A stretch of DNA of 64,000 bases, taken from positions 115,439 to 179,438 of the forward strand of contig JAJEHN010000037.1 in the NCBI GenBank assembly GCA_022823665.1, written 5' to 3'. Source of the DNA: Thermoanaerobaculia bacterium. GTDB lineage: Bacteria; Acidobacteriota; Thermoanaerobaculia; Multivoradales; Multivoraceae. The notes beneath the pieces were generated by a model. That model did no database searches. It was given only the letters and a program-made list of their open reading frames with translations, and was not told where the DNA came from. A program made the translations under genes and the position numbers. Of the stretch, positions 2,462 through 10,428 are shown one piece after another; positions within the stretch are counted from its first letter, which is position 1; each line of letters begins with the position of its first letter.

Positions 2462-4087
2462 ATGCCGAACGGCACCTTGCAAGTACCCGCGCCCCGCAAC
2501 GAACCCGTCCTCGACTACGCGCCCGGTTCCGCCGAGCGGGCCGCTCTCGAGGCACGGCTGAAGGAGATGCTCGGCGAGCGGGTCGAGATCCCGGTCCTGG
2601 CCGGCGGCCGCGAGATCCACACCGGCCGCACGCAGGACGTCGTCTGCCCTCACGATCACGGTCATGTTCTCGGCACCTGTCACCAGGCCGGCGCCGCGGA
2701 AGTCGAAGCGGCAGTGGCGGCCTCCCAGGAGGCCTGGCCGGCGTGGTCCGCGATGCCGTTCGAGGAGAGGGCGGCGATCTTCCTCCGCGCAGCCGAACTC
2801 CTGGCCGGTTCCTGGCGGCAGACGGTGAACGCCGCGACCATGCTGAACCAGTCGAAGACGTGCTACCAGGCCGAGATCGACTCGGCCTGCGAGCTGATCG
2901 ACTTCCTGCGCTTCAACGTCGCGTTCGCGGAGGAGCTCTACGGCCAGCAGCCGGTCTCGTCGCCCGGGATCTGGAACTACGTCGAGTACCGGGCTCTCGA
3001 GGGCTTCGTGTTCGCGGTCACGCCGTTCAACTTCACAGCGATCGCCGGCAACCTGCCGACGTCGGCGGCGATCATGGGCAACACGGTGCTGTGGAAGCCG
3101 GCATCGACGGCGCTGCTCTCGGGCTACTACGTGATGAAGCTGCTCGAAGAGGCGGGGTTGCCGCCGGGCGTGATCAACTTCGTGCCCGGCCCGGGCGCCA
3201 CGGTGGGCGATCCGGTCCTCGCCAGCCGCCACCTGGCGGGCATTCACTTCACCGGTTCGACGCCCGTGTTCCAGCGCATGTGGCGGACGATCGGCGACCG
3301 GATCCAGGGCTACGACACGTACCCGCGCATCGTCGGCGAAACCGGCGGCAAGGACTTCGTGTTCGCCCATCCGTCGGCGGACCCCGCGGCGCTGACGACG
3401 GCGTTGATCCGGGGCTCCTTCGAGTACCAGGGGCAGAAGTGCTCCGCGTCGTCCCGGGCCTATGTTCCGGCTTCGCTGTGGGGCGAGGTGCGCGAGCGGC
3501 TCTGCGCCGAGCTGGCGACTGTGTCGATGGGCTCTCCCGTCGACTTCTCGAACTTCATGGCCGCGGTCATCGACCAGTCGTCCTTCAACAACATCTCCGG
3601 CTACCTGGCCGACGCGGAGAACGGATCGCCGTACGAGATCGTCTCGGGAGGCGGACGGGACGATTCGGTCGGCTACTTCGTCGAGCCCACCGTCGTCCGC
3701 AGCGAGGACCCGCGCTCGCGCCTGATGAGCGAGGAGATCTTCGGACCGGTGCTGACTGTCTTCGTGTACGAGGACGGTGCGCTCGAGGAGACGCTGGAAC
3801 TCTGCGACACGACGAGCCCGTACGCGCTCACCGGCGCCGTGTTCGCCAACGACCGCGCGGCCGTCGCCCGCATCGGCGCCGCGCTGCGCAACGCCGCCGG
3901 CAACTTCTACATCAACGACAAGCCGACCGGCGCCGTCGTCGGCCAGCAGCCCTTCGGCGGCGCCCGGGCGTCCGGCACGAACGACAAGGCGGGCTCCATG
4001 GCGAACCTGATGCGCTGGACGTCCCAGCGGGCGGTCAAGGAGAACTTCGCCCCGCCGACGGACTACCGGTACCCGCACATGGGCTGA
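2462..4087 (+). CDS. pruA: L-glutamate gamma-semialdehyde (1-pyrroline-5-carboxylate) dehydrogenase
   Basis: ATG at 2462 (MPNGTLQVP...) verified. Aldehyde dehydrogenase family with FTGSTPVFQ, ETGGKDF, EYQGQKCSA and EEIFGPV motifs. The upstream 158 codons of ORF 1988..4087 are low complexity. Confidence 0.9.
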   Translation: MPNGTLQVPAPRNEPVLDYAPGSAERAALEARLKEMLGERVEIPVLAGGREIHTGRTQDVVCPHDHGHVLGTCHQAGAAEVEAAVAASQEAWPAWSAMPFEERAAIFLRAAELLAGSWRQTVNAATMLNQSKTCYQAEIDSACELIDFLRFNVAFAEELYGQQPVSSPGIWNYVEYRALEGFVFAVTPFNFTAIAGNLPTSAAIMGNTVLWKPASTALLSGYYVMKLLEEAGLPPGVINFVPGPGATVGDPVLASRHLAGIHFTGSTPVFQRMWRTIGDRIQGYDTYPRIVGETGGKDFVFAHPSADPAALTTALIRGSFEYQGQKCSASSRAYVPASLWGEVRERLCAELATVSMGSPVDFSNFMAAVIDQSSFNNISGYLADAENGSPYEIVSGGGRDDSVGYFVEPTVVRSEDPRSRLMSEEIFGPVLTVFVYEDGALEETLELCDTTSPYALTGAVFANDRAAVARIGAALRNAAGNFYINDKPTGAVVGQQPFGGARASGTNDKAGSMANLMRWTSQRAVKENFAPPTDYRYPHMG

Positions 4088-4117: not shown

Positions 4118-4164
4118 GGCCGCCTGCGGCGGCAGCGGGTCAGAAGACCCGCGCACCTACCGGA
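4118..4164. repeat. twin-hairpin REP-like element / probable bidirectional terminator (copy 1), between convergent pruA and fprA
   Basis: GCCGCC-tgc-GGCGGC (4119-4133) and GCGGGTC-agaa-GACCCGC (4135-4152), then GCACCTACCG. Its last bases supply the TAG stop of minus-strand fprA. A near-identical copy sits at 12186-12232. Confidence 0.7.
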
Positions 4165-5659
4165 GGCGGTTCACCGCCGCCATCATCGACTCGACGTCGG
4201 TGTACTTCTCGCGGACCTTGTTCTGGGCCTCTCCGAGGCGGACCTCGTCTTCGTCGAGCCGGTTCCAGTCGTCGAAGGTCACGAAGTCGACGCCGCGTTC
4301 GCGGAGCAGCTCGACGATCCTCTCCGGCGCCTTGTCGGGGTCGGCCGGCGCCGCTACGCCGTCGATGTCCTCGATCATCTTCTTGACCGTGGCGGTGGAG
4401 TCCGGGCTGTTCGTGCCAATCAGGCCGGTCGGGCCGCGCTTGGCCCAGCCGACGACGTACTGGCCCGGCACGACGTCGCCGTCCGGCTCTGTCTGCAGGC
4501 GGCCTTCGTCGTTGGGCAGGATGCCCCAGCGTTCATGGAACGGCACGCCCGGAAGGGGCACGCCGCGATAGCCGACCGCCTTGAACACGAGGTCGACGTC
4601 GAGGGTCTCGGTTTCGCCGGTGCCTCGTGGTCTCGGCGTGCCGTCGTCGGCGGCGTAGAGCTCGTTCTTCTCGATCACACACCGGCCAACCCGGCCGTCG
4701 TCGCCCGCCTGAAGGTCGATGGGTGAAACGAGGAACCGGCAGGTGACGAGGCGGTCGCCGTCGCCGGCTTGAGCGCCCGCGATCTCGCTCAGATAGGTCA
4801 CGTTGCGGCGTGCGCTGGGCGCGGCGCTTTCCTCGAGCCAGCTACTGCTGATCTCGTCGAGGTCCATCTCCGCTTCGGACACCAGCAGACTGGCGCCTTC
4901 GAGCGAACCGATCTCCTTGATCTCCTGGGGCGAGAACGCTGCCTGCGCCGGCCCACGGCGGCCGAGCAGGACGACCTCCTCGACCCCGCTCTCGCGGAGC
5001 ACGTCGAGCGATTCGGCGGTGATGTCGGTGGGAGCGAGCTCGTCCGTGTTCCGCACCAGGACGCGGGTCACGTCCATCGCCACGTTGCCGTTACCGACGA
5101 CGGCGACCCGCCGCGCCGAGGCCAGGTCGAAGCTGCGATCCTGGAAGTCGGGGTGGCCGTTGTACCAGCCGACGAACTCGGTCGCCGAGTGAACGCCCGG
5201 GAGGTCCTCGCCCGGAATCCCCATCTTGCGGTCCGACTCGTTGCCGGTGGCGTAGACGATGTGGTCGTAGTGCCGGCGGAGGTCATCGACCGAAATATCG
5301 CGGCCGAGTTCGACGTTGCCGAAGAAGCGGAAACGCTCATGCTGCGCGGTGCGGTTGTAGACCCTGATGACGTTCTTGATCTTCTGATGATCGGGGGCGA
5401 CGCCGCCCCGCACCAGGCCGAACGGAGTGGGCAGGCGGTCGAAGAGATCGACGTCGGCCTCGATGCCGTCGGCCTTGAACAGCGCGGCGATCGCGTAGAA
5501 ACCGCTCGGACCGGAGCCGATCACGGCGACGCGGAGGGGTCGTTCACTGCTGCCGAGAGGCCAGCTTTCTGAGGTCTCGTGCACTCGTTCCTCGCCTTCG
5601 CGCCCGGCCGACGCGATCTTCGTTCTGGTGTCGGGAAAGGTCGATCGGTCGGGAATCAT
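4157..5659 (-). CDS. fprA: ferredoxin--NADP+ reductase, FprA/adrenodoxin-reductase type
   Basis: N-terminal FAD fold VAVIGSGPSGFYA; second dinucleotide fold VAVVGNGNVAMD; C-terminal GWAKRGPTGLIGTN. Alternative GTG start at 5584 with an AAGGCGAGGA RBS would remove about 25 N-terminal residues. Confidence 0.8.
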   Translation of the reverse strand: MIPDRSTFPDTRTKIASAGREGEERVHETSESWPLGSSERPLRVAVIGSGPSGFYAIAALFKADGIEADVDLFDRLPTPFGLVRGGVAPDHQKIKNVIRVYNRTAQHERFRFFGNVELGRDISVDDLRRHYDHIVYATGNESDRKMGIPGEDLPGVHSATEFVGWYNGHPDFQDRSFDLASARRVAVVGNGNVAMDVTRVLVRNTDELAPTDITAESLDVLRESGVEEVVLLGRRGPAQAAFSPQEIKEIGSLEGASLLVSEAEMDLDEISSSWLEESAAPSARRNVTYLSEIAGAQAGDGDRLVTCRFLVSPIDLQAGDDGRVGRCVIEKNELYAADDGTPRPRGTGETETLDVDLVFKAVGYRGVPLPGVPFHERWGILPNDEGRLQTEPDGDVVPGQYVVGWAKRGPTGLIGTNSPDSTATVKKMIEDIDGVAAPADPDKAPERIVELLRERGVDFVTFDDWNRLDEDEVRLGEAQNKVREKYTDVESMMAAVNRLR

Positions 5660-5713
5660 AGCGTCGTACCGGCCGGCGCGGTTCCAGAGTGTGACAAGCC
5701 CGGTCGGCGGCAG

Positions 5714-5738
5714 TTGTCAATACGGCTAACTGTTGACA
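5714..5738. promoter_or_regulatory. inverted repeat TGTCAA-N12-TTGACA in the AT-rich divergent fprA / hypothetical-gene intergenic region; -35-like hexamers
   Basis: Sequence cagTTGTCAAtacggctaactgTTGACAtgattagacat. The only AT-rich patch in this GC-rich region. TTGTCA-N17-CATGAT is a possible sigma70-like promoter for the + strand gene. Confidence 0.4.
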
Positions 5739-5810
5739 TGATTAGACATACGCTGCTCCGGACCGCTCGGTCAAGCGGACCGCGGTGGGGAAACTCTGGG
5801 GGAGAATGCC

Positions 5811-7691
5811 ATGTCCCGTCCCTGTTGGCTCGCTGAGTACACCGCCCGCATCCCGGCGCGGTCGACCTTCGTTCTGTTTCTGCTGGGTGGCCTGATTCTG
5901 GGCGCCCTGCCCACCGCCGCGCAGCAGTGCGAGGGTGCGTCCGAGATCACCCGCCTCGGGGGCGCAAACCGATTCACGGCCCCCATAACGGACCAGGCGG
6001 GTCTGCAGGCCCTGTTCGTGGACCACCGGGACGAGATCCTGGCTCTCCTTGGCCAAGCCGGCTGGTCGGGCGACGCGGACGATCTGTTCGCCGCCGTCGC
6101 CGCGTGGCGAGGCGTCACATCGACGACGTTCGAACCCGGCCAGCGGATTCAGTGGATGTTCTTCCGTGAGCGTGGGCAGACGCCCACGGTCGGCACGAAC
6201 ATGTGCTGGGCCGGCGACGAGGCGTTCGCGGCCTGGGAGATCCGCTTCAACTCGAACGGGCGCTGGTACTCGATGATCGTGCCCGAGTCGTGCGGAAACC
6301 TGGCGCTCCTGGCCGAACGGCCGCTGCCGAAGGTCACGCTCGACCTGGACATCGGGGGCCTCTCCTGCGCGGACCAGACCTTCGACTTCCGGAGTTCCTG
6401 CACCGACGGTGACGCTTCGGTGACGGTGAGGATGCCGGACGGCACCGAGAGGGCGGCAGGCGACGGCAGCGTCTCCTTCCCCTTCGCGGATCAGGGCGAC
6501 TACACGGTCACGGCAACCTGCAACGCGATGTCGCCGCGCGGCGACCCGCTCGAGGACTCGATGAGCAGCGCCATCGCCGTCGGTTGTCCGAGTTGCCTGG
6601 TCGCCGCTGCCCCGGAGGAAGTCGATCTGGGGCAGTCATCGGTTCTGACGGTCGTTCCCAGGGCAGGGCACGGCGCCGAGGTGACCCGGGTCACGCTCGA
6701 CGGTCAGCCGCTTGCTTCGCCCTACACGAAGGAGATGACGCACGGAGGCGCGGACGCGTTCACCCACACGGTGACGGTCGAAACGAACACCGGTCAGAGC
6801 GCTCAGTGCTCGGCCGGGATGAAGGTTGCGCCGACGGTCACGGTGTCGATCGAGCCGGATCGCGTGTTGACCGGACAGACGGCGGTCGTCACGGTGGCGC
6901 CGGAGAATGGCGACGGTGCGCCGGTGACGGTCGCGCTGGACGGCCAGCCGCTGGCGGAGCCCTACGAACGCGCGGTCGCTCACGCGACGGATGGCGAGTT
7001 CACCCACACGGCGACAGTGGAGAACGCCGGCGGCAGTAACGAAGCGTCGGCGACGATGAAGGTCGATCGGCGGTGGACCCTGCTGCCGACGCTCAGCTTG
7101 CTGAGCGGTGACGACGTGCACATCTCGCTGCTGGGTCCGGACATGCGGGACAGGCTCAAGGCCTGCGTGGACGGAGTCGGCGTCGGCCTAGCCGCCGAGT
7201 ACCGCCTGAGCTATCCCATGGGGATCATGTTCGGGGCGGAGACGACCAACTGCGAAGTCGACTGGTATCTGCACCCGGGTGGCCGGACCGGCTACGACGG
7301 CGTTGACGTGGAGATGAAGAAGTTCTTCTTCGGGCTGAACTTCCATCTGACCCGCCCCGGCAGCCGTGTGGACTGGTGGCTGGGACCCCTGGTCGCCCAG
7401 CTCGACTACAGCTCTCCGACCCTCATGCCGACCGGGCTGGATGGCGTGTCGGTGGACGCCGTCTACCGTCCCCAGTGGTCCGGCGAGACGGTTCTCGGCG
7501 CCAACATGGGTCTGAAGATCCCGTTCAAGGCGGACTGCCCGGTCGGCCTGTACTTCGGCGCTTTCTGGCTCGACTCGTCGATGAAGGCGAAGAGTTCGGA
7601 GATCCGCGGCGAGGACGGGGCTCTCGCGCCCGCGTTCGAGCTGCGCAAGACGCCGGTCTACGTCAAGGCTGGAATCTCGATCGAGTTCTGA
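5811..7691 (+). CDS. hypothetical secreted protein: signal peptide, cysteine-rich N-domain, two tandem ~79-aa Ig-like repeats, C-terminal putative outer-membrane beta-barrel ending in Phe
   Basis: Hydrophobic N-terminus (FVLFLLGGLILGALPTAAQQ). Repeats VTLDGQPLASPY...FTHTVTVE / VALDGQPLAEPY...FTHTATVE. C-terminal 200 aa show alternating hydrophobic residues and end ...AGISIEF. Confidence 0.6.
   Translation: MSRPCWLAEYTARIPARSTFVLFLLGGLILGALPTAAQQCEGASEITRLGGANRFTAPITDQAGLQALFVDHRDEILALLGQAGWSGDADDLFAAVAAWRGVTSTTFEPGQRIQWMFFRERGQTPTVGTNMCWAGDEAFAAWEIRFNSNGRWYSMIVPESCGNLALLAERPLPKVTLDLDIGGLSCADQTFDFRSSCTDGDASVTVRMPDGTERAAGDGSVSFPFADQGDYTVTATCNAMSPRGDPLEDSMSSAIAVGCPSCLVAAAPEEVDLGQSSVLTVVPRAGHGAEVTRVTLDGQPLASPYTKEMTHGGADAFTHTVTVETNTGQSAQCSAGMKVAPTVTVSIEPDRVLTGQTAVVTVAPENGDGAPVTVALDGQPLAEPYERAVAHATDGEFTHTATVENAGGSNEASATMKVDRRWTLLPTLSLLSGDDVHISLLGPDMRDRLKACVDGVGVGLAAEYRLSYPMGIMFGAETTNCEVDWYLHPGGRTGYDGVDVEMKKFFFGLNFHLTRPGSRVDWWLGPLVAQLDYSSPTLMPTGLDGVSVDAVYRPQWSGETVLGANMGLKIPFKADCPVGLYFGAFWLDSSMKAKSSEIRGEDGALAPAFELRKTPVYVKAGISIEF
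6582..7067 (+). repeat. in-frame tandem duplication (~237 bp x 2) encoding two Ig-like repeats inside CDS 5811..7691
   Basis: DNA ctcgacggtcagccgcttgc...ttcacccacacggtgacggtcgaaacgaac vs ctggacggccagccgctggc...ttcacccacacggcgacagtggagaacgcc; protein period 79 aa. Confidence 0.7.
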
Positions 7692-7745
7692 CGGTTCCGG
7701 GACAGAGGCGGGCTGAGCCGCGCTTCCCGCCGCATCCGATGTAGT

Positions 7746-8960
7746 TTGGGGGCAGGCGGGGAACTTGCCGTGAAGCCGACGGAACTGGAAGAACGCTACG
7801 GCGCACGGAACTACGCGCCCCTCGACATCGTGATCGACCGCGCCGAGGGCGTGTGGGTCTGGGATGTCGACGGTCGCCGTTACCTCGACTGCCTCGCGGC
7901 CTACTCGGCGGTCAACCAGGGGCACTGCCATCCCCGGATCGTGGATGCCCTGATCCGGCAGAGCCGGAAGGTGGCGGTCACTTCGCGGGCGTTCCACAAC
8001 GCCGAACTCGGGGCGTTCTTTCGGGACGTCTGCGAACTGACCGGCTTCGAGCGGGCGCTGCCGATGAACACCGGCGCCGAGGCGGTGGAGACCGCGATCA
8101 AGCTGGCCAGAAAGTGGGCGTACACGCGCAAGGGCGTTTCTCCGGGACGAGCGGAGATCCTGGCGTTCGCCAACAACTTCCACGGCCGCACGACGACGAT
8201 CGTCGGCTTCTCGAGCGAGCCCCAGTACCGCGAGGGATTCGGCCCGTTCACGCCCGGCTTCGAGCTGCTGCCGTTCGGCGACGCCTCCGCCGCAAGGGCG
8301 GCGGTGGGTCCGGACACGGCGGCGGTCCTGATCGAGCCGATTCAGGGGGAGGGCGGCATCGTCGTGCCTCCAGACGGTTACCTTGCCGAACTGCGGGAGG
8401 TCTGCAGCGAGCGGAACGCGCTCCTGATCGTCGACGAGATCCAGTCCGGTCTGGGGCGGACAGGGCGGATGTTCGCGCATGAGCACGACGGCATACGGCC
8501 GGACGTGATGCTGCTCGGCAAGGCGCTCTCCGGCGGTCTGTATCCTGTGTCGGTGGTCGTGGCGGACGCGGAGATCATGGATGTCTTCCAGCCGGGCGAC
8601 CATGGCTCCACCTACGGCGGCAATCCGGTGGCGGCGGCGGTCGCGCGCGCCGCGCTGGCGGTGCTGCAGGACGAGGGCCTGATCGAGAACTCGGCGCGTC
8701 TCGGCGAGTACGCCCTGGGCCGGTTGCGAAGCGTCCGTTCGCCGCTGGTGCGCGAGGTCCGTGGCCGTGGACTGTGGATCGGAATCGAACTCGTTGAATC
8801 CGCCGGCGGCGCCCGTTCGTATTGCGAGAAACTGGCCGGGCAGGGACTGCTGTGCAAGGAAACCCATGATCACGTCATCCGATTCGCGCCGCCCCTGGTC
8901 ATCAGGCAGGAGGAACTGGACTGGGCGCTGGATCGCATCGAGGAAGTGCTGACGGCATGA
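7746..8960 (+). CDS. rocD: ornithine aminotransferase
   Basis: Near-collinear with known OATs: YGARNYAPL, AYSAVNQGHCHP, DEIQSGLGRTGRMFA, PDVMLLGKALSGG, HGSTYGGNP, LLCKETHDHVIRFAPPL. Confidence 0.9.
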   Translation: MGAGGELAVKPTELEERYGARNYAPLDIVIDRAEGVWVWDVDGRRYLDCLAAYSAVNQGHCHPRIVDALIRQSRKVAVTSRAFHNAELGAFFRDVCELTGFERALPMNTGAEAVETAIKLARKWAYTRKGVSPGRAEILAFANNFHGRTTTIVGFSSEPQYREGFGPFTPGFELLPFGDASAARAAVGPDTAAVLIEPIQGEGGIVVPPDGYLAELREVCSERNALLIVDEIQSGLGRTGRMFAHEHDGIRPDVMLLGKALSGGLYPVSVVVADAEIMDVFQPGDHGSTYGGNPVAAAVARAALAVLQDEGLIENSARLGEYALGRLRSVRSPLVREVRGRGLWIGIELVESAGGARSYCEKLAGQGLLCKETHDHVIRFAPPLVIRQEELDWALDRIEEVLTA

Positions 8961-9568
8961 CGGCCGACGCCGCGAGCGCGCCGCCGGCCGCGGCGTCGCC
9001 TCGGCCCGGGACTGTCGACGACCGGGTACGGGCGATCCGCCGGCCCCATCCGAAGCTGTTGCGTTACTACCTTCTCTTCTCGCTGATCACCGGACCGGCG
9101 TTCCCCGTCGTCTTCACCATCCTGTTCCTGCGCTATCGCACGCTGAGCTACGGCTTCGACGACGAAGGCGTGACGATGAGCTGGGGCGCCGTGTTCAAGC
9201 GCGAGATCAGCCTTACTTACAGCCGCATCCAGGACATCCACGTGCAGAGCAACGCGGTCGAGCGATGGTTCGGTCTCTCGCGTCTGCTGGTCCAGACGGC
9301 GAGCGGTTCGGCCAAGGCCGAGATGAAGGTCGAGGGCCTGCTGGAACTGTCGGCGGTTCGCAACTTCATGTACAGCCGGATGCGCGGCGCGCGTACGGTG
9401 GCCCCAACCGGTGCAGTTGCCGCTACGGCCGCTGGGCCCGGTGCCGCCGCGCCCGCGGCGACTTCCGACTCGGCCGCCCTCGCCGCGACTCTGCGAGAGA
9501 TCGCCCGCGAAGTCACCGCGATCCGTGGGGAACTGGAGCGGCGCGGGTTGGATGGACGCAACCGATGA
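8957..9568 (+). CDS. YdbS-like membrane protein with bacterial PH (bPH_2) domain
   Basis: ATGA overlap with the rocD stop. Hydrophobic hairpin LLRYYLLFSLITGPAFPVVFTILFL followed by PH-like GVTMSWGAVFKREISLTYSRIQDIHVQSNAVERWFGLSRLLVQTASG. Confidence 0.55.
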   Translation: MTADAASAPPAAASPRPGTVDDRVRAIRRPHPKLLRYYLLFSLITGPAFPVVFTILFLRYRTLSYGFDDEGVTMSWGAVFKREISLTYSRIQDIHVQSNAVERWFGLSRLLVQTASGSAKAEMKVEGLLELSAVRNFMYSRMRGARTVAPTGAVAATAAGPGAAAPAATSDSAALAATLREIAREVTAIRGELERRGLDGRNR

Positions 9569-10428
9569 CCGGCGAGCCCGCCGCCGGGGCAGCCGGCACC
9601 CGAATGCCCAGGGGCCTGAAGCGCCTTCTGCTCTGGCTGTTCCAGGTCGAAGAGCGTCCCGAGCCTCCCCCGGGATCGCCGGAGTCGCTCAGGGTGTTCC
9701 GCGCTTCGCCGCGGTTCTTCCGGTACAGCGTGCTCAAGTGGGCCATCGGGCAGATGTTCGCCCTGGTGGGCCTCGTCGGGTCGGCCATCGGGCTCGGTTT
9801 CGTCGAGATCGGGAACGAAGCCGGGAACGTGGTGGTCGAGCTCCTCGAAGAACGCGCCGCGGGCGCGGCTCTCTGGTTCAGGTTCACCGAGACGCTGGCG
9901 CCTTTCCTGATCGTCCTCTTCGTGGTTCAGTTCCTGACGTCGTTCTCCGTGCTTCGCCTGGGCTACGAGATGCGCTGGTACATGGTGAGCGACCGCGCCC
10001 TTCGCATCCGGTACGGCATCTACAGCCTCCGCGAACAGACGATGACGGTCGTGAACATCCAGAACATGGCGGTGAAACGCGGTCCCCTGCAGCGTCTGTT
10101 CGGCATCGCCGACCTGGAGATCCGCACCGCCAGCGGCGGCGGTTCGGACGATGACGACGAGGACAGCCTGAACCGCGGTCTGCTGCAGGGCCTGGACAAC
10201 GCGGAAGAGGTACGCAACCTGTTGCTGGCGTCGTTGCGGCAGAGTCGGGACGCCGGTCTCGGCGATCCCGACGACCGGCCGGCCGGGCCCGCGGTACCGG
10301 CGGCGTCAAGGGAGGATCGTGGTCCGGGCGGAGCGGAAGACGCTTCGGTTCTCATTGCCGCGGGTGACCTGCTCGCCGAGTGCCGGGCTCTGCGGCGAAC
10401 CGTGGCCGGGACGGCGGAAGCGCTGTGA
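9565..10428 (+). CDS. YdbT-like membrane protein with bPH_2 domain
   Basis: ATGA overlap with the previous gene (ATG 9565). TM hairpin WAIGQMFALVGLVGSAIGLGFVEI; PH-like MTVVNIQNMAVKRGPLQRLFGIADLEIRTASG; acidic tail. Confidence 0.5.
   Translation: MTGEPAAGAAGTRMPRGLKRLLLWLFQVEERPEPPPGSPESLRVFRASPRFFRYSVLKWAIGQMFALVGLVGSAIGLGFVEIGNEAGNVVVELLEERAAGAALWFRFTETLAPFLIVLFVVQFLTSFSVLRLGYEMRWYMVSDRALRIRYGIYSLREQTMTVVNIQNMAVKRGPLQRLFGIADLEIRTASGGGSDDDDEDSLNRGLLQGLDNAEEVRNLLLASLRQSRDAGLGDPDDRPAGPAVPAASREDRGPGGAEDASVLIAAGDLLAECRALRRTVAGTAEAL

Follow-up and report, generated by a model that had tools for sequence, protein, structure and literature searches.

A window of 64,000 nucleotides from a Thermoanaerobaculia bacterium (assembly GCA_022823665.1, contig JAJEHN010000037.1) was analysed, and attention was directed to the gene at positions 5811-7691 of its plus strand. 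With a probability of about 0.6, its product is an outer-membrane protein in which an OmpW-like barrel acts as anchor, immunoglobulin (Ig)-like modules act as spacers and a periplasmic head constitutes the functional tip. The original prediction, made from the DNA letters and their translations, had described this open reading frame (ORF) correctly in position, strand, start codon and length. The gene was followed through a Multivoraceae clade by a genome scan that used one genome per species and yielded 37 loci, and its parts are the following.

5811-7691, plus strand: complete coding sequence of 626 amino acids and a stop codon, with an ATG start and full-length homologues at 57-95% identity.
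5811-5924, plus strand: predicted Sec-type signal peptide (residues 1-38), with a charged n-region, the hydrophobic segment FVLFLLGGLILGAL and a TAA/AQ cleavage region, and without a lipobox.
5925-6326, plus strand: head domain (residues 39-172), three helices packed on a six-stranded antiparallel sheet, with no Pfam family and no fold match in the PDB.
6291-6293, plus strand: codon of Cys161, in the motif VPESCGN (PxxCxN), invariant and apparently unpaired.
6327-6593, plus strand: Ig-like module 0 (residues 173-261), divergent, with five cysteines including those of CPSC at 259-262, and with beta-sandwich strands in the model.
6594-6833, plus strand: Ig-like (PKD-like) repeat 1 (residues 262-341).
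6834-7070, plus strand: Ig-like (PKD-like) repeat 2 (residues 342-420), with a Pfam PKD match at residues 343-418 below the gathering score.
7071-7688, plus strand: predicted 8-stranded OmpW/OmpA-like outer-membrane beta-barrel (residues 421-626).
7659-7688, plus strand: putative beta-signal strand YVKAGISIEF, in which KAGISIEF fits the pattern polar-x-G-x-x-hydrophobic-x-aromatic.

The class of the C-terminal domain carries much of this reading. An AlphaFold2 model of the full protein was built on 28 homologues (mean predicted local distance difference test score, pLDDT, 83; predicted template modelling score, pTM, 0.54), and in this model the C-terminus forms a closed antiparallel 8-stranded barrel rather than a soluble domain. 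According to DSSP, the strands span approximately residues 422-442, 445-465, 470-489, 494-512, 521-533, 559-571, 578-587 and 616-625, and they are connected, in order, by 2, 4, 4, 8, 25, 6 and 28 residues, with turns of 4, 8 and 6 residues alternating with loops of 2, 4, 25 and 28. The two long loops (534-558 and 588-615) lie at the positions of the extracellular L3 and L4, are modelled with low confidence and are the most variable. The membrane-proximal halves of the strands present an alternating hydrophobic pattern, and aromatic residues (Trp422, Tyr464, Trp522/523 and Tyr533) are found at the barrel rims, all but Tyr533 at the rim that would face the periplasm. In addition, 178 of the 183 residues of OmpW (PDB 2f1t) align to the block formed by residues 422-625.

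The last strand points in the same direction, and the barrel ending in Phe that had been proposed from the letters was borne out, since the model gives the barrel, the protein ends in GISIEF and F626 is invariant in the 28 homologues. A wider family was collected by a profile search of 1.84 billion cluster representatives (50% identity clusters), from which the best 148 of 645 matches were inspected; among these 148 representatives, 77 end in F and 10 in W, typically within G-x-x-Y/F-x-F. The topology, the rims and the last strand of the predicted barrel match the general hallmarks of outer-membrane proteins and substrates of the barrel assembly machinery (BAM) (PMC13067283). The window protein itself gave no barrel match in Pfam even at E <= 10 and no match in NCBIfam. 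Two relatives found by profile, P0046 and P0088, pass the OMP_b-brl threshold (33.6 and 35.5 bits, respectively, vs 28.7), and P0088 also passes that of OmpW (26.5 bits vs 24). As judged from these profiles, the Pfam barrel membership of the window protein is transitive, through its relatives, and not direct.

An OmpW-sized barrel of eight strands has both termini in the periplasm and offers no pore for a polypeptide. Because an even-stranded barrel that ends in the periplasm also starts there, and because such a pore is absent, we infer from the modelled topology that the N-terminal 380 residues are periplasmic. Strand 1 follows directly on Ig repeat 2, at Arg421-Trp422, a junction that would be located at the periplasmic rim. 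Sequence entropy within the clade is 0.87 for the presumed extracellular tips and loops, 0.57 for the membrane and periplasmic parts and 0.55 for the head, and the confidence of the model drops at exactly these presumed extracellular tips. The head is thus among the least variable parts and the external tips are the most variable, which is weakly consistent with the periplasmic orientation.

Under this reading, the protein would be exported by Sec and its signal peptide cleaved, after which BAM would insert the C-terminal 206 residues, recognising KAGISIEF as beta-signal and folding the 8-stranded OmpW/OmpA-like barrel. The two long loops, of 25 and 28 residues, would occupy the positions expected for the extracellular L3 and L4, and residue 421, where the barrel begins, would be periplasmic. 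The barrel would act mainly as a membrane anchor, its presumed interior-facing residues being Gly-rich and polar, and the three Ig-like modules would be spacers that together form a stalk of ~10-12 nm holding the head in the periplasm. The role of the head is speculative: it could be the functional tip, with Cys161 of the PxxCxN motif providing a thiol-dependent activity or a covalent or metal-mediated contact with a periplasmic partner.

The head is an uncharacterised domain and the only element of the protein of this kind. When modelled alone on 55 diverse sequences, it reached a pLDDT of 97.4 and a pTM of 0.91. A Foldseek search with this model against the PDB returned nothing better than E 0.25 or TM 0.25, the comparison being with solved structures, so that a match among predicted structures remains possible. 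Pfam gave no match beyond noise for the 55 diverse head sequences, a profile search of PDB sequences produced only a chance match (FlgG, E 0.73), and a second protein search with the head profile recovered only 14 proteins. In the wider family, 645 clusters were matched at E <= 1e-3, 284 at E <= 1e-10 and 49 at E <= 1e-30. The head is common to nearly all of the 148 representatives listed, head-only proteins included, and the dominant architectures among these best 148 of 645 are head followed by barrel or head alone, some of the latter being fragments. A diverse alignment of the head showed Met116, Pro158, Cys161 and Asn163 to be invariant, and Gly50, Trp115, Trp133 and Gly135 to be nearly so.

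The PxxCxN motif was found in 113 of 115 heads, and in 47 of these 115 Cys161 is the sole cysteine of the head. Moreover, the number of cysteines after the signal peptide is odd in all 57 full-length distant relatives. Since these counts are odd and Cys161 is often the only head cysteine, the statistical evidence is strong, family-wide, that this exported domain has conserved a thiol without a partner. Conserved unpaired thiols of exported domains usually have a function, in catalysis, in metal binding or in a covalent link. By contrast with the lone Cys161, Cys40 and Cys132 appear together in 45 of 48 sequences, the pattern that a disulfide would produce. The mature protein of the Multivoraceae clade contains 12 cysteines (11 in P0043, in which Cys576 is missing), and the pairs 40-132, 186-259, 197-237, 262-333 and 452-481 can tentatively be proposed for it, this pairing being deduced from the repeat alignment and from covariation. 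In particular, Cys259 covaries with Cys186, and Cys262 with the position that corresponds to Cys333 through the repeat alignment. Cys576 is specific to the clade and is located in periplasmic turn 3 of the predicted barrel. The CPSC sequence at residues 259-262 was considered as a thioredoxin-like CxxC feature of the family and was rejected, as it is absent in nearly all distant relatives. The head had been called Cys-rich and globular, which was imprecise with regard to the cysteines: it contains three in 134 residues, and the Cys-rich segment is the adjoining Ig-like module at residues 173-261, with five.

Between head and barrel, modules 0, 1 and 2 all appear as beta-sandwiches in the AlphaFold2 model. 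The Pfam matches are those of PKD (PF00801, residues 343-418, E 2.8e-4, 21.3 bits, under the gathering cutoff of 23.5) and of PKD_4 (PF18911, residues 186-237, E 0.009, 16.5 bits, under the cutoff of 27), so that membership in these two families by gathering threshold was not reached. The tandem Ig-like repeats that had been proposed were nevertheless supported as PKD-like modules. At the sequence level, the similarity of module 0 to repeat 1 and repeat 2 was not significant (z of -0.1 and 1.0, respectively), so that paralogy can be recognised for only the last two of the three Ig-like modules of the model. In the 57 full-length distant relatives, head and barrel are separated by ~25 to ~250 residues, with a mode of 150-190 residues, equivalent to two modules, whereas in the window protein they are separated by 248 residues, or three modules. 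This variation in length across the family speaks for the modules being spacers. Their number is 0-3 across the wider family and three in the Multivoraceae clade. From the sequences compared, module number varies over deep evolutionary distances and not between strains, and the extra module is a signature of the Multivoraceae clade.

The two adjacent repeats, announced as being of ~79 residues at 6582-7067, are real: they measure ~80 residues and occupy nucleotides 6594-7070, within ~12 nucleotides of that placement. In local alignment they score 173, whereas shuffled sequences score 28.5 +/- 5.3 (z = 27), and they are identical at 40 of 78 aligned residues (51%). It had been argued that the repeats, being recognisable at the DNA level, were recent, and this was contradicted by several observations. 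Codon-aligned DNA identity is 58%, distributed as 65%, 67% and 41% over codon positions 1, 2 and 3, and the 41% at third positions compares with a chance expectation of 39%, given a G+C content of 87% at these positions. With third-position identity at chance, synonymous sites between the repeats are saturated. Tandem Repeats Finder reported nothing on 5000-8500, and a repeat finder returned only three short blocks of 37, 27 and 17 nucleotides, 81-85% identical and offset by 240/237 nucleotides, which match the conserved peptide motifs LDGQPLA-PY and FTHT-TVE. Both repeats are present in 43 of 43 full-length homologues (57-95% identical, 619-672 residues), and exactly two copies were found in all 37 species-level genomes, which also answers the suggestion that copy number may vary between strains. 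When four of the most divergent orthologues were compared, repeat 1 of the window protein was 65-86% identical to their repeat 1, and repeat 2 was 56-71% identical to their repeat 2, against 38-51% between the repeats within any one of the proteins compared. Since both copies are found everywhere and orthologous repeats resemble each other more than do the repeats of one protein, the sequences indicate that the duplication is old, that it predates the divergence of the whole clade and that copy number is fixed within it.

At the other end of the protein, the claim of secretion was supported by an N-terminal hydrophobic segment and an A-x-A-type site in the sequence, and the product of 5811-7691 is accordingly a secreted protein with a predicted signal peptide. 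Residues 1-38 are disordered in the model (pLDDT < 50), and distant homologues carry AxA/Q sites at the same place as the cleavage region of the window protein. A lipoprotein was ruled out, since Cys40 (AAQQC) is not preceded by a lipobox and the relatives carry AxA/Q sites for signal peptidase I. An element of 69 nucleotides was observed inserted in frame in the signal-peptide n-region of some orthologues, in locus L023 (~4905-4975) and also in L026, L028 and L029. A single copy is carried by the proteins P0017, P0028, P0037 and P0039, and P0038 has two in tandem; no copy was found in the window by short-word BLAST. The element consists of two GC-rich hairpins, GGGTGGCGCGATCTTGCGCCACCC and CCGAGCGCCCGTCATCGGGCGCTCGG, and adds 23 residues (TRVARSCATRDPxRAPVxGRSG) without disrupting the protein. 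Since partial matches occur elsewhere in loci L008, L011 and L018, the sequence suggests a dispersed repeat resembling repetitive extragenic palindromes or miniature inverted-repeat transposable elements (REP/MITE-like).

An 8-stranded outer-membrane barrel and Ig modules are ordinary components, and what is new here is the architecture with an N-terminal extension together with the head. Compared with OmpW of E. coli (PDB 2f1t; PF03922) and with the OMP_b-brl proteins (PF13505: OmpA-N, OmpX, NspA and OprF-N), which are single-domain proteins, the window protein adds an N-terminal extension of 380 residues. It resembles OmpA and OprF in being a two-compartment protein, a small anchor-type barrel covalently joined to a periplasmic module. 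However, the order is reversed, the periplasmic part being N-terminal, and this part consists not of OmpA_C but of three Ig-like modules and the unmatched head; peptidoglycan-binding domains (OmpA_C, LysM, SPOR and SLH) were sought in it by profile and fold, with no match. The PKD and bacterial Ig-like families (PF00801, PF18911) differ in turn from the window modules, which stay below their Pfam gathering thresholds. N-terminal periplasmic modules followed by a BAM-inserted C-terminal barrel are the design of BamA/TamA (POTRA), LptD, PgaA/BcsC and SLH-OmpM, whose barrels have 16-26 or more strands and whose periplasmic domains belong to known types. The window protein shares their order and, according to the model, their topology, with a barrel of only 8 strands and an uncharacterised distal domain.

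Type 5 systems also unite a barrel and an elongated passenger in one polypeptide, and the passengers of type Ve are strings of Ig-like domains, but the window protein fits none of their classes. In classical (Va) autotransporters the barrel is C-terminal and 12-stranded, and a linker passes through its lumen (PMC8151025), whereas the window barrel is 8-stranded and lacks a predicted linker helix or segment, and the protein does not match the Pfam Autotransporter domain. In inverse (Ve) autotransporters such as intimin and invasin, the 12-stranded barrel is N-terminal and the Ig passenger follows it at the C-terminus (PMC8151025). The order is the opposite in the window protein, whose barrel is 8-stranded, OmpW-like and C-terminal to the Ig modules, and the description of the protein as inverse-autotransporter-like is therefore not supported. 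In Hop-type (Vf) proteins, a predicted 8-stranded barrel is interrupted by a passenger that forms an extracellular loop (PMC8151025), whereas the 8 strands of the window protein are contiguous in residues 422-625. A short N-terminal strand at residues 44-46 was predicted with high confidence also in the head-only model, in which the barrel is not present.

Several points weigh against the periplasmic reading. The arrangement of the domains relative to each other is uncertain at a pTM of 0.54. The number of strands, the inward or outward facing of residues and the partners in disulfides were read from DSSP strings and from the periodicity of the sequence, and strand 1 is split in DSSP at Gly433-Asp434, which was read as a bulge and not as a hairpin. 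The count of 12 cysteines in the clade is even, and Cys161 might therefore be paired, possibly with the clade-specific Cys576; such a Cys161-Cys576 link, which is speculation, would require both residues to be in the periplasm. The gene neighbourhood gives no functional clue outside the clade. Furthermore, an Ig-like stalk with a distal head is the classic design of surface adhesins, and the lineage is presumably host-associated, judging by the names of its metagenome-assembled genomes (MAGs; SB06xx, RHO1 and COS1/3), which we take to resemble those of sponge-metagenome bins.

These last points lead to the surface adhesin that the original prediction had favoured, in which head and Ig stalk would be either exported to the cell surface or anchored on it by the C-terminal barrel, in a manner that is autotransporter-like or otherwise type-5-like and non-canonical, and the head would bind a ligand of the host (sponge) or matrix. 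The succession of head, Ig/PKD stalk and barrel does resemble adhesin logic, a variable number of stalk modules is typical of adhesins, and the protein diverges 2-3 times faster than its neighbours (57% vs 81-85% identity in the most distant genomes). However, the modelled topology, an 8-stranded, OmpW-like, contiguous and C-terminal barrel, disfavours surface display. Classical, trimeric and inverse autotransporters are 12-stranded pores with the linker in the lumen, and the Hop-type passenger sits in an extracellular loop after an N-terminal strand (PMC8151025). The head, in turn, is among the least variable parts within the clade, which would be unusual for an exposed adhesin tip, and a surface adhesin is therefore considered unlikely. 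A more radical version, in which head and stalk, although joined to the N-terminus of a contiguous 8-stranded C-terminal barrel, reach the surface by a further type-5-like display route in Acidobacteriota, and the new-fold, cysteine-bearing head is a ligand tip in sponge symbionts, is quite improbable. Less radically, the head may represent a novel family of thiol-dependent domains of the periplasm, which would be tethered at a fixed distance from the outer membrane.

An uptake channel of the OmpW/AlkL type for small hydrophobic molecules, whose Ig modules and head would receive or hand over the substrate, loosely like the periplasmic domain of LptD, is likewise unlikely. In its favour, the Pfam OmpW threshold is passed by some relatives, strands 1-4, with lengths of 19-21 residues, protrude like those of OmpW, and many aromatic residues and Met are conserved in the head (W115, M116, W133, F139, W142 and W152). 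In contrast to the hydrophobic channel of OmpW, the interior of the window barrel, as read from the model, would be mostly Gly and polar or charged (E463, E477, N510, H512, E559, N565, K569, Y617 and K619), more like OmpA/OmpX, and genes for the catabolism of hydrophobic substrates are not consistently adjacent. It is also very doubtful that the protein is a tether between outer membrane and cell wall or a periplasmic spacer, a sub-case of the periplasmic reading in which the head would bind peptidoglycan or an inner-membrane partner and the Ig modules would set the distance. Such a protein would resemble OmpA, Pal or OmpM in function, with the domains in the opposite order to those of OmpA. 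The single-copy gene is conserved in a core-genome context, an anchor-type barrel is combined with a spacer-like variable module number, and a stalk of ~10-12 nm is comparable to the distance between outer membrane and peptidoglycan. On the other hand, the head has no similarity to OmpA_C, LysM, SPOR, SLH or PG_binding in Pfam results or fold matches. Finally, high-GC DNA yields many spurious long ORFs in other frames here, but an assembly artefact or spurious ORF, of which artefactual repeats would have been one form, is practically negligible, given that independent assemblies, closed chromosomes of 3.7-5.4 Mb among them, encode the same protein of 620-650 residues with its two repeats, that the structure models are confident and that synteny is conserved.

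The barrel and the Ig modules being ordinary, the interest of the protein lies in the head family. At least 645 clusters join a head unmatched in the PDB, with an invariant lone Cys, to an outer-membrane anchor through variable Ig spacers. A periplasmic head would amount to a periplasmic module of a new type, tethered to the outer membrane, in a phylum that has been little studied; a surface-exposed head would call into question the current rules by which passengers cross the outer membrane. In both cases, it would be reasonable to determine the structure of the head and to give it a Pfam entry of its own.

The lineage is classified as Acidobacteriota; Thermoanaerobaculia; Ca. Multivoradales. 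The gene occurs once per locus in 37 of 37 loci, from MAGs labelled Candidatus Multivorans, Ca. Multivoraceae, Thermoanaerobaculia, 'Holophagales' or Acidobacteriota, and several of the 37 genomes are closed chromosomes. A search on the genus found no paper in the literature collection consulted, and the 64-kb window contains no second copy of head or barrel. In every locus of the clade, the gene is located between a divergent gene for an FprA-like NAD(P)H flavin oxidoreductase and an ornithine aminotransferase gene. The neighbouring genes and the putative signals of the gene are as follows.

2462-4087, plus strand: aldehyde dehydrogenase of the pyrroline-5-carboxylate (P5C) dehydrogenase type, upstream.
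4157-5659, minus strand: FprA-like flavin oxidoreductase, upstream and divergent.
5714-5742, plus strand: promoter-like site TTGTCA-17-CATGAT with a TG extension, in the 151-nucleotide intergenic region upstream, a consensus match only.
5798-5804, plus strand: Shine-Dalgarno-like GGGGGAG, 6 nucleotides before the ATG, read from sequence.
7746-8960, plus strand: ornithine aminotransferase, downstream.
8957-9568 and 9265-10428, plus strand: two consecutive genes for bPH_2 (bacterial PH domain, YdbS/YdbT-like) membrane proteins, after the aminotransferase in all clade loci.

The P5C-dehydrogenase-type, FprA-like and aminotransferase genes keep this arrangement in every clade locus whose flanking sequence is long enough to show it. 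The first and the last of these encode enzymes of the route from ornithine/proline to glutamate. The starts of the two bPH_2 ORFs overlap as listed, and the second gene probably begins at some point after 9265. One promoter-like site of this kind was found against 0.1 expected in shuffled sequences. Because only 54 nucleotides separate the stop codon of the 5811-7691 gene from the ornithine aminotransferase start, and no terminator-like site was found, co-transcription of the two genes is possible. The window has a G+C content of 69.5%, and long ORFs lie in other frames over the real genes at 7188-8873 (minus strand), 6636-7121 (minus strand) and 6584-7039 (plus strand). They have no homologue support, are typical high-GC artefacts and are not to be annotated.

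Outside the clade, the neighbourhoods of three distant relatives have nothing in common with the window and little with each other. Two loci from different assemblies, L040 (1-5835) and L041 (1-5827), present the same upstream genes, namely two beta-propellers of the pyrroloquinoline quinone (PQQ) type, an iron alcohol dehydrogenase, an unannotated protein and a radical-SAM/HemN-like protein. Downstream, the genes of the two loci are not the same, and genome kinship or a functional link are both conceivable.

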